NCBI GenBank assembly: GCA_934120715.1 | Contig: CAKOUW010000004.1 | Coordinates: forward strand, 26,781 to 90,780 | Source of the DNA: an uncultured Bacilli bacterium | GTDB taxonomy: Bacteria; Bacillota_I; Bacilli_A; RF39; UBA660 | DNA length: 64,000 nt | Direction: 5' to 3' | In this document: positions 20,723-24,768 of the stretch, piece by piece | How the letters are laid out: each line of letters starts with the position of its first letter | Position numbering within the stretch: position 1 is the stretch's first letter | Position numbers and translations under genes: made by a program | Notes under the pieces: model-generated | The model's database searches: none | Told to the model about the DNA's origin: nothing | The model's input: the letters and a program-made list of their open reading frames with translations, nothing else

Positions 20723-20753
20723 AAGTGTTCAAAATGATCACTTTTATTTTTTT
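20721..20753. terminator. bidirectional hairpin terminator between the XRE gene and the 97-aa gene
   Basis: AAAAGTG / CACTTTT stem, 11-nt loop, T-runs on both strands. Its T-run forms the start of direct repeat copy B. Confidence 0.5.
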
Positions 20754-20792
20754 AGATCCATCTTGGAATAAAATCGGTCGGATCCTCTACAA
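20747..20792. repeat. direct repeat copy B
   Basis: See copy A. Covers the stop codon and last 13 codons of the 97-aa gene. Confidence 0.9.
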
Positions 20793-21045
20793 CATATTTA
20801 ATTTCAATATTTTCAATAGGTAATGGTTCATTTAATTTTTCAGTTACGCTTGACTCAATATAAACATCTTCTAAGCTTGCTTCTTCAATATCTGCTTCTT
20901 TTGGTTTATTTCTCAATATCATTTTTTGTCCATTTAATGTTTCAAATTCAAATACTGGGTAATGTTTATTATTTTCTATATCGTATCTAATAATTTTTCC
21001 AATTACCTTTTCTTTAGTTCTTTTATCCCTTTTAAATAAAAACAT
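20752..21045 (-). CDS. 97-aa hypothetical protein, last gene of the LemA/DUF2207/rSAM unit
   Basis: Starts 8 nt after the radical SAM stop. Mixed charged and beta-prone sequence with no recognised motif. Confidence 0.5.
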   Translation of the reverse strand: MFLFKRDKRTKEKVIGKIIRYDIENNKHYPVFEFETLNGQKMILRNKPKEADIEEASLEDVYIESSVTEKLNEPLPIENIEIKYVVEDPTDFIPRWI

Positions 21046-21053
21046 ATTTTCTC

Positions 21054-22046
21054 CTACAACTTACAACCTATATCTTTATGATTCAATTCTTTATATAATG
21101 CATAAGTAAGGCACTTTAAACCTCCATGGCACATTTCAGAATGTTCACATTCACTGCAATCATCAGGTATTTTATTTAATCTAAGTTCCTTTAAGACTTT
21201 ATTATTTTTATATAATTCATACATATTATCTTTTAGTAAATTACCAACTACTATTGGCATTCTTCTGCAAGGAACCAGATCACCATTTTCCATTACAGTT
21301 AAAAGTGTATCACCAGCAGTACAGCCATAAGCAAAGTCGTTTGTTTTCTGGAACTGTAATGCTCTATACATGGAAATAGAGGTAGTATTTTTTCTTTTAT
21401 TTCTTAACTTTTCTCTTTCATTGTTCATTATATTTAAATATTCTTGAGTTTGTTCTACATTTAATGTTAAACTTTTATCTTCATTATCTCCAAGTGGTAT
21501 ATAACGATCAGACCAAACATTATCTACTTTATGTTTAACAGCATATTTTACTACTTTTGGAAATTCTTTATAGTTAATAGAAGTAGCAGTAAAGGAAATA
21601 GAAGTAAATATATCATATTTCTTTAAATTGTCTATCCCTTTACCAATTTTTTCATAAGTACCGGTTCCTCTAATATAATCATTTGTTTTTTTGCCTCCTT
21701 CAAGACTAACTTGAACGTAGTATGGATTATATGATTTTATCTTTTTTGCTATATCCTCATTTATTAATGTTCCATTAGATAATATAGAGAAACTAATTAT
21801 TTCTTCATCTTGTTTTATTAAATCTAAAATTTTAAAGAAATATGGATTGCATAATGGTTCTCCTCCAGTAATGTTAATATGTCCTTTAATCTTTAGCTTT
21901 GTTAATAATTCTTTAAATTGATTATATATATTAACTAAACTTTCATAACTTAACTGAACGGGTTTATGATTTTCTTGATAACAATGTAAACACTTTAAAT
22001 TACAGTTTTCACTTAAATGCCATTGTAATACAAATCTCTTTACCAT
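21054..22046 (-). CDS. radical SAM enzyme with C-terminal SPASM domain
   Basis: CNLKCLHCY (CX3CX2C) near the N-terminus. SPASM-type cysteines YGCTAGDTLLTVMENGDLVPC and CSECEHSEMCHGGLKC. Start set to ATG 22046 (MVKRFVLQW), which overlaps the upstream stop (ATGGTAA). Confidence 0.85.
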   Translation of the reverse strand: MVKRFVLQWHLSENCNLKCLHCYQENHKPVQLSYESLVNIYNQFKELLTKLKIKGHINITGGEPLCNPYFFKILDLIKQDEEIISFSILSNGTLINEDIAKKIKSYNPYYVQVSLEGGKKTNDYIRGTGTYEKIGKGIDNLKKYDIFTSISFTATSINYKEFPKVVKYAVKHKVDNVWSDRYIPLGDNEDKSLTLNVEQTQEYLNIMNNEREKLRNKRKNTTSISMYRALQFQKTNDFAYGCTAGDTLLTVMENGDLVPCRRMPIVVGNLLKDNMYELYKNNKVLKELRLNKIPDDCSECEHSEMCHGGLKCLTYALYKELNHKDIGCKL

Positions 22047-24217
22047 GAACCTCCACCGCCACAAGATGAACAGCCGCCACCACAAGATGAGCAACCTCCG
22101 CCACAAGATGAACAACCTGATGAGCTACCGCTTGAAGAATAAACTGGTTCTGGGTAGTAAACATTACTATATAAATCATGATAAGCCCAATCACTACTAT
22201 AATCAAAATTACCCATATCTAATTCTGGTGTTGGAATATCTTCAAACTTCTTTATCCATTTTTTTGAAACATTAAGAGCATATGTATAAGGTAGAATATT
22301 ATAAAAATAATTTGGATTTTCTGCAACTAATGCTTCTAATTTTGGTTTTTCAGCGGTTATTAAGAAATGTCTAAATCCTTGTATTTGAGCAGTGATTTTT
22401 TCTCCATATTCAGTCTTTCTTTTCATAAATACAGTAAAGAAAGTATTTACTAGTATACATATGAAAGAAAGCGTATATAAGATTTTCCAGTTTGGATCTA
22501 AATCCTCTACAAACTTATAAGATATAAGACTTAAAATAGCAACTAAAATAGTAATAAATATTGATGTTGTCATTTTTTTTGTTGCAATCTTGTCATGAAC
22601 AGTATCTTTTAATTTTGATTTTAATTCTTTCTCAACATCATCAAATGCTTTATAAAATGTTTTATGTTCACTCAATATAATTACATTATCTTTTTCAAAT
22701 AATCTGTTGTAAACAGTTAACTCAAGAGTAGTTAAAGATGGCATTTTTCCAATTTTATTATTGTAATTTACTTTGTCTATTTCATATTGCTTCTTACTTG
22801 CTTCGTATTCGTTTTTTCTCTTATTTAGTTCCTCAAATCTTGAATCTTCATTATCGGAAACAATTTCAATAAATCCTTTTTGAACAAGCGAATCTTTAAC
22901 TGCTAAGAATTTTTCTATATTAGTTTTTAATTCTTTTTCATCAACTTTTCTGAATAAATATGTCATCATAGTTATTTCACTTTTATCTAAAATTGTAGGA
23001 TCAGCTAATTTTAATTTTTTTACTTTAATTACTCTATCCGGTACTAAATCATCAAATGACAATTGTTCCACTGGTTTAATCATTAAATTAGTTATTTGTA
23101 TTTCTTTTTTCTTTTCCTTTAATTCATCTATTTTTATATAACCCTTACTAGCAAGCTGTACTATCAATGAAATGGTTAACTTTTTACTTGTTTGTTTTCC
23201 ATAAATATATCCAACTTCTGCAGCACTCATTTTTTCTGGTGGATAAAATTCTACTGTTTGAGCAGGTTTTGAATAATCTTTTCCGTATTTTTTCCATTTA
23301 AATATTGTATATGCTGTAATTCCAAATATTATTAATGTAATTATGAATGAGCCCCAGCCATAATTCCAACTACCTCCAACGAAATATCCTTCTGGAAGTT
23401 CTATATCAACAGTTAAAGATTTTTCAAGTTTTTTGTTATAATAACTATTCTCTCCAAAATCACAAACTCCATTTTCTACATTGTACTCATTGGAACAATA
23501 CTCTTTTCTTTGAGCTTCTGTGTATTTATCTTGATTAAATTTAGCATATAATGTATTACCAATGACTTCATAATCAACGCAGTTTGATACATTTTCTTTT
23601 CGTTTTTTATCAGTAAAGAAGTTGACATTATAACCCTCTATACTTTTGGGCATATTTATTTGTATAGTAGCATTTTTTATTTCAGTTCCCCAATAATCAC
23701 CAAAAGCATGAAAAATAAATTCATCAAAATTTTTAAATGGATCCCTGCCCATATCATAAGTATATTCTACGTTATAGGTCTTTTCCCCTAAACTCACATA
23801 TTCAGAAGCACTACCGAGTTTTATTCTAGCTTTTTTCTTAACCCAATCTGTTGTATAAGGATCACTTGTTGATCTTAAGTTAGAAACAGTAGATTTTCTT
23901 TTTATTGTATTACCATTTTTGTCAGTATATTGTAACCATTCTGGAGTAAATTTATAAATTCCATGATGATAACTTGATTCCCAATTAACAGTTATATTTT
24001 CAGTAACATCAATTTTATTATCTTCTTTAACATCTAAGATTATATTATATGCTGAAATAGTAAAACCGTCGGCAAGCTTTATATTTTCTGTATCATCACT
24101 AAAGAATGAAGTTATACCACCAATTAAGGCCCAAAAAATCATAATAGCAAAATAGCAAAAAAAGAAAAATTTTACAATTCCAGTAAAGCACCCTGGTACT
24201 TTATTCTTTTTAGCCAT
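22040..24217 (-). CDS. DUF2207-like membrane protein with Cys/Gly/Ser-repeat C-terminal tail
   Basis: 725 aa. N-terminal TM helix, extracytoplasmic domain, further TM helices, tail SSGSSSGCSSCGGGCSSCGGGCSSCGGGGSW. Start overlaps the lemA stop by 1 nt (TAATG). Confidence 0.6.
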   Translation of the reverse strand: MAKKNKVPGCFTGIVKFFFFCYFAIMIFWALIGGITSFFSDDTENIKLADGFTISAYNIILDVKEDNKIDVTENITVNWESSYHHGIYKFTPEWLQYTDKNGNTIKRKSTVSNLRSTSDPYTTDWVKKKARIKLGSASEYVSLGEKTYNVEYTYDMGRDPFKNFDEFIFHAFGDYWGTEIKNATIQINMPKSIEGYNVNFFTDKKRKENVSNCVDYEVIGNTLYAKFNQDKYTEAQRKEYCSNEYNVENGVCDFGENSYYNKKLEKSLTVDIELPEGYFVGGSWNYGWGSFIITLIIFGITAYTIFKWKKYGKDYSKPAQTVEFYPPEKMSAAEVGYIYGKQTSKKLTISLIVQLASKGYIKIDELKEKKKEIQITNLMIKPVEQLSFDDLVPDRVIKVKKLKLADPTILDKSEITMMTYLFRKVDEKELKTNIEKFLAVKDSLVQKGFIEIVSDNEDSRFEELNKRKNEYEASKKQYEIDKVNYNNKIGKMPSLTTLELTVYNRLFEKDNVIILSEHKTFYKAFDDVEKELKSKLKDTVHDKIATKKMTTSIFITILVAILSLISYKFVEDLDPNWKILYTLSFICILVNTFFTVFMKRKTEYGEKITAQIQGFRHFLITAEKPKLEALVAENPNYFYNILPYTYALNVSKKWIKKFEDIPTPELDMGNFDYSSDWAYHDLYSNVYYPEPVYSSSGSSSGCSSCGGGCSSCGGGCSSCGGGGSW
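22055..22117 (-). repeat. three tandem 21-nt repeats encoding (GCSSCGG)x3
   Basis: Units tccgccacaagatgaacaacc / gccaccacaagatgagcaacc / accgccacaagatgaacagcc on the plus strand. Confidence 0.9.
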
Positions 24218-24768
24218 TATAACTCCACCTTTATATTTTGTCTTTCTTCATCACTAGTTGTAAACATTAATTTTGACTTATAACCTAATACCTTTGCTAC
24301 TATATTGCTTGGTATCATTTCTACTTTATTATTATAATCTCTTACAACTGCATTATAGTACTTTCTTGATTGAGCTATTTCATCTTCAACAGAAGTAAGA
24401 TCACTGCTTAATTGTAAAAAGCTTTCATTAGCTTTTAATTCTGGATATGCTTCGGCTAAAGCCATAATTTTACTAATGCCTTTACTTAATTTTTCATTAG
24501 CTTTGATTTTATCATCATTAGATAAATCATCATAATTTCCATTTCTTAATTTTACAACTTCTGCAAGCGTATCTTTTTCATGCTTCGCATAACCTTTTAC
24601 AATTTCTACTAAATTAGGTATTAAATCCCATCTTTTTTTCAAATAAACATCCATAGTTGCAAAGCTTTCATTGACTGAGTTGTTAAGTTTTATTAGTTTA
24701 TTATACACAACTACAAAATATAATAAACATATTATCAATACTACCGCTAACGCAATTACATAATTCAT
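24217..24768 (-). CDS. lemA: LemA family protein
   Basis: 183 aa. N-terminal TM helix followed by YNKLIKLNNSVNESFATMDVYLKKRWDLIPNLVEIVKGYAKHEKDTL, the typical LemA sequence. Confidence 0.85.
   Translation of the reverse strand: MNYVIALAVVLIICLLYFVVVYNKLIKLNNSVNESFATMDVYLKKRWDLIPNLVEIVKGYAKHEKDTLAEVVKLRNGNYDDLSNDDKIKANEKLSKGISKIMALAEAYPELKANESFLQLSSDLTSVEDEIAQSRKYYNAVVRDYNNKVEMIPSNIVAKVLGYKSKLMFTTSDEERQNIKVEL

Follow-up and report, generated by a model that had tools for sequence, protein, structure and literature searches.

A cysteine-repeat tail on a DUF2207 membrane protein is the probable substrate of an overlapping radical SAM/SPASM enzyme in uncultured Bacilli

What does a radical S-adenosylmethionine (rSAM) enzyme act on when its gene begins inside the last codons of a gene for a large membrane protein, and that membrane protein ends in a run of cysteine repeats? 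The question is raised by a locus in a 64,000-nucleotide stretch of contig CAKOUW010000004.1 from an uncultured Bacilli bacterium (the window; coordinates are window positions unless a related locus, numbered L, is named), where a gene for a DUF2207 membrane protein overlaps one for an rSAM enzyme with a SPASM domain. Here, we propose that the cysteine (Cys) tail of the DUF2207 protein is probably the substrate of the coupled enzyme. This is based on the co-occurrence of tail and enzyme, the lack of a conserved precursor peptide, and the predicted accessibility of the tail, which together support the idea, put forward in an earlier note on this DNA, that the enzyme modifies the tail of a membrane protein and not a free peptide. 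We draw a distinction between this proposal and the chemistry and physiological purpose of the modification, both of which are speculative.

The DUF2207 gene (22040-24217, minus strand) encodes a protein of 725 amino acids (aa) that matches the Pfam families DUF2207 (PF09972, 70.8 bits) and DUF2207_C (PF20990, 105.2 bits), both above cutoff. Its last 25 residues, GCSSCGGGCSSCGGGCSSCGGGGSW (residues 701-725, encoded at 22043-22117, minus strand), have the form G(CSSCGGG)x3 GSW and are the proposed substrate, with Cys at positions 702, 705, 709, 712, 716, and 719. The rSAM/SPASM gene (21054-22046, minus strand; 330 aa from its ATG; Pfam Radical_SAM and SPASM) has its start codon within the Ser-Trp-stop end of the DUF2207 gene, the two sharing the 7 nt ATGGTAA (22040-22046, minus strand), and this arrangement of reading frames implies translational coupling of the enzyme to the membrane protein. 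On the upstream side, the stop codon of lemA (24217-24768, minus strand; 183 aa; Pfam LemA, E 6.5e-52, 175.8 bits; transmembrane helix at residues 3-21) overlaps the DUF2207 start in TAATG, and on the downstream side an open reading frame (ORF) of 97 aa (20752-21045, minus strand) starts 8 nt past the rSAM stop. The four-gene minus-strand chain described in the earlier note is therefore present with its coordinates, both overlaps, and the 8-nt gap. The same is true of the six tail Cys as three CxxC pairs on 21-nt repeats, as seen from the Cys positions and from Tandem Repeats Finder (22045-22118; period 21 nt, 3.5 copies, 83% matches), and of the CX3CX2C motif and SPASM Cys clusters of the enzyme, as seen from the motif at C15, C19, and C22 and the Pfam match. 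In a scan for promoters and terminators, sites were no more frequent than in shuffled sequence, and nothing resembling a terminator was found.

Which part of this chain is a functional unit? A scan with the rSAM enzyme, keeping one genome per species, gave 39 related genome loci in which the enzyme is 65-90% identical to that of the window. Most of these loci belong to metagenome-assembled genomes of uncultured gut “Bacilli” (from humans, rabbits, chickens, and ruminants), among them Candidatus Faecisoma and Coprosoma, and one belongs to a cultured Pseudobutyrivibrio isolate. In all 39 a DUF2207 gene lies directly 5' of the rSAM gene, overlaps it by 7 nt, and ends in CxxCGGGGSW, with 3-7 Cys in the tail; such a recurrence of pair, overlap, and tail in related loci is far more than chance. 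The 7-nt overlap is also found in L040, L044, L052, and L054. By tblastn, lemA, whose product usually partners DUF2207 proteins, is upstream in 21 of the 39 loci, with unrelated genes preceding DUF2207 in the remainder; the 97-aa ORF has a match in none, and the genes farther out vary from locus to locus, so that no gene beyond (lemA)-DUF2207-rSAM is conserved. Therefore, on comparison of gene order, the conserved unit is the Cys-tailed DUF2207 protein plus the rSAM enzyme, with LemA a frequent yet dispensable neighbour. The 97-aa ORF is probably cotranscribed with the rSAM gene in the window, outside the conserved module.

Within this module the tail is by far the more constant part of the membrane protein. 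Of 42 loci (the window and 41 others), 36 end in exactly the same 17 residues, CSSCGGGCSSCGGGGSW, while the DUF2207 body is just 38-75% identical among related loci. Each of the 16 non-Trp positions of this 17-aa end is encoded by 2-4 synonymous codons across the 42 loci, and since the peptide is identical despite this variation, selection acts on the amino-acid sequence and not on a DNA or RNA element. Among 142 distinct Cys-type tails, the number of Cys per tail ranges from 2 to 8 (mode 6), a Cys is nearly always followed by GGG or SSC, and from the first Cys to the C-terminus the composition is virtually G, S, C, and W alone. Apart from a single free ORF of 58 aa, a word search with the tail by itself gave just DUF2207 fragments from the C-terminus, and found the tail in no other protein family.

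The overlap between the two genes is equally regular. The literal ATGGTAA is specific to the window, and its relatives share a general NTGGTAR overlap in which the rSAM start codon, NTG, consists of the last base of the Ser codon and the TG of the Trp codon. The Ser codon TCA thus yields an ATG start in 15 loci, TCT a TTG start in 19, and TCG a GTG start in 2. A GGAGG lies in the Gly4 run 3-9 nt 5' of the rSAM start in 33 of 42 loci (window 22047-22068 and the equivalents in 41 loci), and the Gly codons of the tail could double as the ribosome-binding site of the enzyme gene, judging from their position. We do not claim this GGAGG as evidence of a selected ribosome-binding site, as about 33 of 42 is what a rough estimate from Gly codon usage by itself predicts. 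We also set aside a DUF2207-rSAM frameshift fusion: the rSAM frame stays open for 23 codons farther upstream (ORF 21054-22115) as a by-product of the stop-free repeat, and the homologues are 330 aa long.

Does the enzyme follow the Cys of the tail, or only the DUF2207 gene? An exhaustive profile search with the DUF2207 protein gave 8,015 representatives at E <= 1e-3. Among the best 150 of these 8,015, the nearest ~50 almost all have CSSCGGG-repeat ends, and the others have a Cys-free Gly/Ser tail (for example …SGGGSGGGGGGSW and …SSGGGFSGGGSGGGGGGSW). The window protein has the features of the family (both domains, a polytopic architecture, and the GGGGSW end), with G720-G722 and W725 invariant, and the family tails and loci agree with the earlier note's statement that LemA partners are DUF2207 or TPM proteins with Gly-rich tails ending in Trp. 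Given the Cys-free Gly/Ser tail across the wider family, the Cys tail is therefore a derived version. In a neighbour-joining tree of DUF2207 bodies with the tails removed (132 tips), all 36 Cys-type representatives lie inside one clade of 43 tips, the remaining members of which are two Cys-free sequences, P0176 and P0181, and five tail-less ones.

For co-occurrence we used a sample of 13 genes picked without reference to the rSAM gene. An adjacent rSAM gene was found beside four of the five with a Cys tail, namely P0170 (one CxxC), P0349 (one CxxC), P0324, and P0136 (a free 58-aa ORF), and not beside the fifth, P0367 (in L041). It was found beside none of the six with Cys-free tails (P0368, P0386 and its tandem paralog, P0389, P0388, and P0337) and neither of the two tail-less genes (P0398 and P0395). 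Hence the enzyme is adjacent in 4/5 Cys tails versus 0/8 Cys-free or tail-less genes (Fisher's exact test p = 0.007), and the comparison of tail types that the earlier note had suggested turns out in favour of its idea, with the rSAM enzyme not equally associated with Cys-free tails. The link between DUF2207 and rSAM persists where the enzyme is only 49% identical to that of the window (P0170, L040). Viral contigs, queried with a mixed Cys/Cys-free alignment, contained no DUF2207 relatives, and tblastn of plasmids with DUF2207 gave three weak Sinorhizobium matches alone, unusable as controls.

One option is that this association reflects operon organisation only, the enzyme having an unlinked target (a small molecule, a cofactor, or a peptide) and the tail Cys an unrelated role. 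In its favour, the scores of NirJ2 (110 bits) and of AhbD, a haem b synthase (101 bits), lie only moderately below those of the best-scoring NCBIfam models for the enzyme, none of which passes its cutoff. We nevertheless regard the option as quite unlikely: every locus retains the 7-nt overlap although the rest of the neighbourhood differs, the rSAM gene is present solely where the tail has Cys, purifying selection on the tail peptide is very strong, and the enzyme is also found next to a second Cys-tailed paralog and to a free peptide with the Cys tail.

The paralog is found in L052 (643-6307) and L053 (326-5990), which have the order lemA-DUF2207-rSAM-DUF2207, with three Cys in the first tail and six in the second. 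In this gene order one enzyme stands between two candidate substrates, both Cys-tailed, and we count this in favour of the tail as substrate. The free peptide is found in L054, where a stand-alone 58-aa ORF at 452-628, MKPTIINLKALQDIKNKLQTNIQNQVKQTVIKRG(CSSCGGG)x3GSW, lies downstream of an unrelated gene for a coiled-coil-like protein of 143 aa and shares ATGGTAA with an overlapping rSAM gene of this family that starts at 622; by its layout, L054 may be a free-peptide form of the system.

Could a separate small gene product be the substrate instead, either the 97-aa ORF or an unannotated precursor peptide? Enzymes of ribosomally synthesised peptides with post-translational modifications (RiPPs) usually act on small peptides, and the 97-aa ORF begins only 8 nt past the rSAM stop in the window. 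However, this ORF encodes no Cys, has no significant Pfam or NCBIfam family, and is missing from 39/39 related loci, which refutes the earlier note's alternative that the enzyme acts on its product. A weak local match of the ORF to DUF3592 (E 0.022) was the only sign of a relationship to that family, and we make no claim from it. The possibility of an unannotated small precursor, also raised in that note, fares no better, as no Cys-rich ORF of 15-90 aa recurs across loci within 500 nt downstream of the rSAM gene and inside the module, where the genes overlap, there is no intergenic space. A separate small substrate is thus highly improbable.

If the tail is the substrate, can the enzyme reach it? 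Hydropathy and the positive-inside rule predict transmembrane helices in the DUF2207 protein at residues 7-25, 288-306, 544-562, and 579-597 with the N-terminus inside, which puts a beta-rich N-terminal domain outside the cell and two regions in the cytoplasm, among them the region past helix 4 (MKRK…) with the tail. The same topology has been described for S. mutans SMU.243, and an S. mutans mutant of a gene of this LemA-DUF2207 type is stress-sensitive (PMC10457818). In an AlphaFold2 (AF2) model of the DUF2207 protein (mean predicted local distance difference test score, pLDDT, of 81), residues 691-718 fall below 50, so that the tail repeats are predicted to be disordered, and the last five residues, GGGSW (721-725; window 22043-22057), form a confident short beta strand. 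The model suggests that the GGGSW end common to the family folds back to dock on the protein and that the repeats form an exposed loop. Being predicted both cytoplasmic and disordered, the tail is therefore predicted to be reachable by the rSAM enzyme. A sequence search of the Protein Data Bank (PDB) gave no match for the DUF2207 protein, and Foldseek with its model gave weak beta-sandwich matches alone (M1 aminopeptidase N-domains, TM-score about 0.15), which are functionally uninformative.

What kind of enzyme is it? The Radical_SAM match (PF04055) scores 88 bits against a cutoff of 29.5, with C15, C19, and C22 of the CX3CX2C motif invariant in 26 homologues, and the SPASM match (PF13186) scores 30.2 bits against a cutoff of 21.5. 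Seven further Cys are invariant in the same homologues (C242, C260, C297, C300, C306, C312, and C328); they follow CX9-15GX4C ... CX2CX5CXnC ... C, the 7-Cys SPASM motif for two auxiliary clusters, and align with the SPASM domain of CteB. Because CX3CX2C starts at residue 15, there is no N-terminal RiPP recognition element (RRE). The nearest solved structures by sequence are CteB, SkfB, and SuiB, the best PDB profile match being CteB, with an alignment that spans the SPASM domain in full. For the AF2 model of the enzyme (pLDDT 73.8), the best Foldseek match is anSMEcpe (TM-score 0.70), followed by SkfB, PqqE, SuiB, and TigE. CteB has an open site on its first auxiliary cluster to which a Cys of the substrate binds, whereas the two clusters of anSME have all their ligands, from eight Cys.

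The enzyme falls below the cutoff of every NCBIfam model. The highest scores are those of the ACGX-system rSAM (159.4 bits, cutoff 400), SbtM (142.5, cutoff 350), and GeoRSP (126), followed by NirJ2, ScmE (106), PapB (105), and AhbD. The nearest curated families (the ACGX system, SbtM, GeoRSP, and PapB) act on Cys-containing peptides or proteins. No curated family was found that covers the special feature of the rSAM enzyme or its DUF2207 partner, which itself has no NCBIfam match; public records name the enzyme “radical SAM protein” only. In the literature, we found no paper that mentions DUF2207 and radical SAM together and none that mentions ACGX or TIGR04340.

How far do these relatives resemble the system described here? 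The ACGX system (TIGR04340), itself uncharacterised, is the best-scoring curated family, aligns over the whole length of the enzyme, and likewise places a compact rSAM/SPASM enzyme beside short tandem Cys-Gly repeats. The present enzyme nonetheless falls far below the 400-bit cutoff, the repeat is CSSCGGG and not ACGX, and the repeats end a 725-aa membrane protein, with no adjacent short ACGX-repeat peptide. SbtM (TIGR04082), the second-best family, converts a Gly-Cys motif into a thio-oxazole by hydrogen abstraction from the Cys C-beta (PMC9204691), and here too a Gly precedes the first Cys of each unit. Unlike SbtM, the enzyme stays below the 350-bit cutoff and aligns to model positions 199-497 of 516 alone, so that the ~200-residue N-terminal part has no counterpart; moreover, no selenocysteine is present and the substrate would be a protein tail. 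For the PapB family (NF047865) the score of 105 bits compares with a cutoff of 340, and here the enzyme has no RRE and its partner is a large protein, not a short Cys-rich precursor.

The CteB/SCIFF-type and ranthipeptide maturases share with the present enzyme the 7-Cys SPASM domain, through which CteB gives the best PDB profile match, and have multi-Cys peptide substrates. Similarity to CteB is low (E about 1e-10), the enzyme here lacks an N-terminal RRE and, unlike in the CteB/SCIFF-type and GggB systems, no protease or exporter gene is conserved nearby and the only available acceptors are Gly and Ser. Streptosactin, made by GggB, a type 2 sactipeptide synthase, has tandem unnested 4-residue sactionine rings (PMC9389541), which by analogy are a plausible model for the CxxC-GGG units. 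The best structural match, anSME (23% identity), is likewise a minimal rSAM plus SPASM enzyme without an RRE, and is the classic modifier of Cys or Ser in a full-size protein. However, the present enzyme scores 67.6 bits against a cutoff of 349 for anSME (TIGR03942), the tail lacks the C/S-x-P/A-x-R sulfatase motif, and the SPASM region has 7 Cys, where that of anSME has 8. The system differs from RiPP clusters in having no conserved protease or transporter and in having its core fused to a polytopic membrane protein. It resembles ordinary LemA-DUF2207 or LemA-TPM pairs in gene pairing, domain architecture, predicted topology, and the terminal GGGGSW, and differs from them in that theirs are Cys-free tails without an rSAM gene (0/6 Cys-free genes).

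Against the tail as substrate stand several points. The independent sample is small, at 13 genes, and the 39 related loci were found through the rSAM enzyme and so are silent on whether every Cys tail has one. P0367 (L041) has a Cys tail without an rSAM gene within 4 kb downstream. L054 rests on one 766-bp contig with 2.3x coverage and without an obvious ribosome-binding site, and is a lead only. The variable number of Cys (2-8) fits repeat-wise modification and is not diagnostic of it. Finally, the enzyme is below every curated cutoff, so that its chemistry is not transferable by homology, and the AF2 confidence is low in its SPASM region.

The L041 case, from genome GCA_029264335.1, deserves a closer description. 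Its DUF2207 gene (L041:653-2797), with lemA upstream and a convergent ThiC gene following, encodes the tail …GGGGFSSSGGGCSSCGGGGSW, in which one CSSC unit is left, the preceding units read FSSS, and the Ser codon is TCC, giving CTG at the start position. From the sequence this looks like loss of the enzyme and then decay of the tail, although the enzyme could be encoded at a distant site. The absence of an adjacent rSAM gene here means that a Cys tail can therefore exist, at least temporarily, without a neighbouring enzyme.

In light of the Cys tail being the probable substrate, how might the system work? We suggest that in one clade, mostly small-genome gut Bacilli known from metagenomes, FSGGG-type units became CSSCGGG and that the same clade gained a dedicated rSAM/SPASM enzyme. 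The enzyme would be made by translational coupling directly after synthesis of the tail and would bind the disordered cytoplasmic tail, probably with a Cys thiolate occupying the site left open on its first auxiliary Fe-S cluster. The 5'-deoxyadenosyl radical would then be used to modify each C-x-x-C-G-G-G unit post-translationally. As the product, our first choice would be small tandem intramolecular thioether rings of the sactionine type, linking Cys S to the C-alpha of Gly or Ser, because of the CteB-like 7-Cys SPASM pattern and because only Gly and Ser are available as acceptors. Variants with CGGC keep the enzyme (L032 and L037), and Ser is therefore not essential. The second choice would be a thio-oxazole or formylglycine, formed through oxidation of Cys at C-beta in the manner of SbtM or anSME. 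Assignment to any one of these chemistries is tentative at best. Either chemistry would turn a flexible tail into an element of the membrane protein that is chemically defined and rigid or metal-binding. More specifically, the tail might become a covalently cross-linked or heterocyclic element that stays on the protein (tandem sactionine rings or thio-oxazoles), protein-tethered, RiPP-like, and possibly metal- or redox-active; we consider this possible but doubtful.

Alternatively, the Cys tail may not be a substrate at all. It could be a metal or Fe-S site (for Zn, Cu, Fe, or a cluster) or a docking handle, possibly ligating an auxiliary cluster of the rSAM enzyme and so holding the enzyme at the membrane protein, while the enzyme acts on an unlinked substrate. 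Tandem CxxC are classic metal ligands, a gene for a ZIP zinc transporter is nearby (25901-26698), one Cys-tailed gene lacks an adjacent rSAM gene, and the 7-Cys SPASM region implies an open cluster site for a tail Cys. Set against these are the variation in Cys number from 2 to 8, with a single CxxC sufficing for retention of the enzyme (P0170 and P0349), and the fact that the ZIP gene and all other neighbours are unconserved. In addition, all of the nearest enzyme families modify the Cys-bearing polypeptide that they bind, and a free 58-aa peptide with the same tail beside the rSAM gene fits a substrate better than an anchor. A metal or docking role alone is therefore unlikely. The earlier note had offered this role combined with action of the enzyme on the 97-aa product; the latter part falls with the absence of that gene from the related loci, and the metal or Fe-S part is weakened.

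What would modification of such a tail mean? SPASM-type rSAM enzymes are known chiefly as maturases of short exported peptides, and clear instances of action on a full-size protein, such as that of anSME on sulfatases or of QhpD on QhpC, are few. In the system proposed here the logic of an rSAM/SPASM enzyme beside a Cys-repeat substrate is familiar; what appears to be new, as read from the genes, is that the substrate would form the C-terminus of a large polytopic membrane protein and that the system lacks an RRE, a protease, and an exporter. Should the modification prove real, it would represent a new class of protein-tail maturation and extend RiPP-type chemistry to the tails of membrane proteins. 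It would also show how a RiPP-like pathway arises on, or detaches from, a large protein, with L054 as a possible free form. DUF2207 is a very large family without a known function, and the proposal, if true, gives a first functional handle on the widespread GGGGSW tails of the LemA partners (DUF2207 and TPM).

A cultured organism is also within reach. Locus L034 (NZ_FMXT01000001.1), from Pseudobutyrivibrio sp. YE44, a cultured member of the Lachnospiraceae, has the pair of Cys-tailed DUF2207 and rSAM without an adjacent lemA. Its enzyme is 67% identical to that of the window, its DUF2207 body 38%, and the 17-aa tail end is identical, a pattern that hints at horizontal transfer. Pseudobutyrivibrio sp. 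YE44 is thus a cultured host for testing this two-gene system with its 25-residue core.

The neighbourhood of the module in the window holds several other recognisable genes, all unconserved beside it in related loci. Just upstream of lemA is an Amidase_3 cell-wall hydrolase gene (25122-25808, minus strand), and beyond it the ZIP-family zinc transporter gene (25901-26698, plus strand), from which we draw no link to the Cys tail. On the other side lie a gene whose 425-aa product has a zinc ribbon at its N-terminus, a transmembrane segment, and an HELGH motif (18889-20166, minus strand), a gene for a 575-aa trypsin-like peptidase (17152-18879, minus strand), and one for a 1524-aa protein with FHA and FtsK/SpoIIIE ATPase domains (7004-11578, minus strand), an EssC-like component of type VII secretion.

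Two observations from other loci concern the relatives of this system. In L046 (6563-8670) an unrelated rSAM/SPASM gene of 582 aa is followed by an overlapping 120-aa ORF ending SSSSSGGSSS-N14-S, a poly-Asn tail; the two may form another kind of rSAM-peptide pair, and close by are a lemA-DUF2207 pair without a tail and a lemA-TPM pair. The DUF3592 genes at L042:2765-3424, L043:2765-3424, L055:3317-3940, and L055:6564-7193 lie beside lemA-DUF2207 pairs or DUF2207 genes of the Cys-free type.

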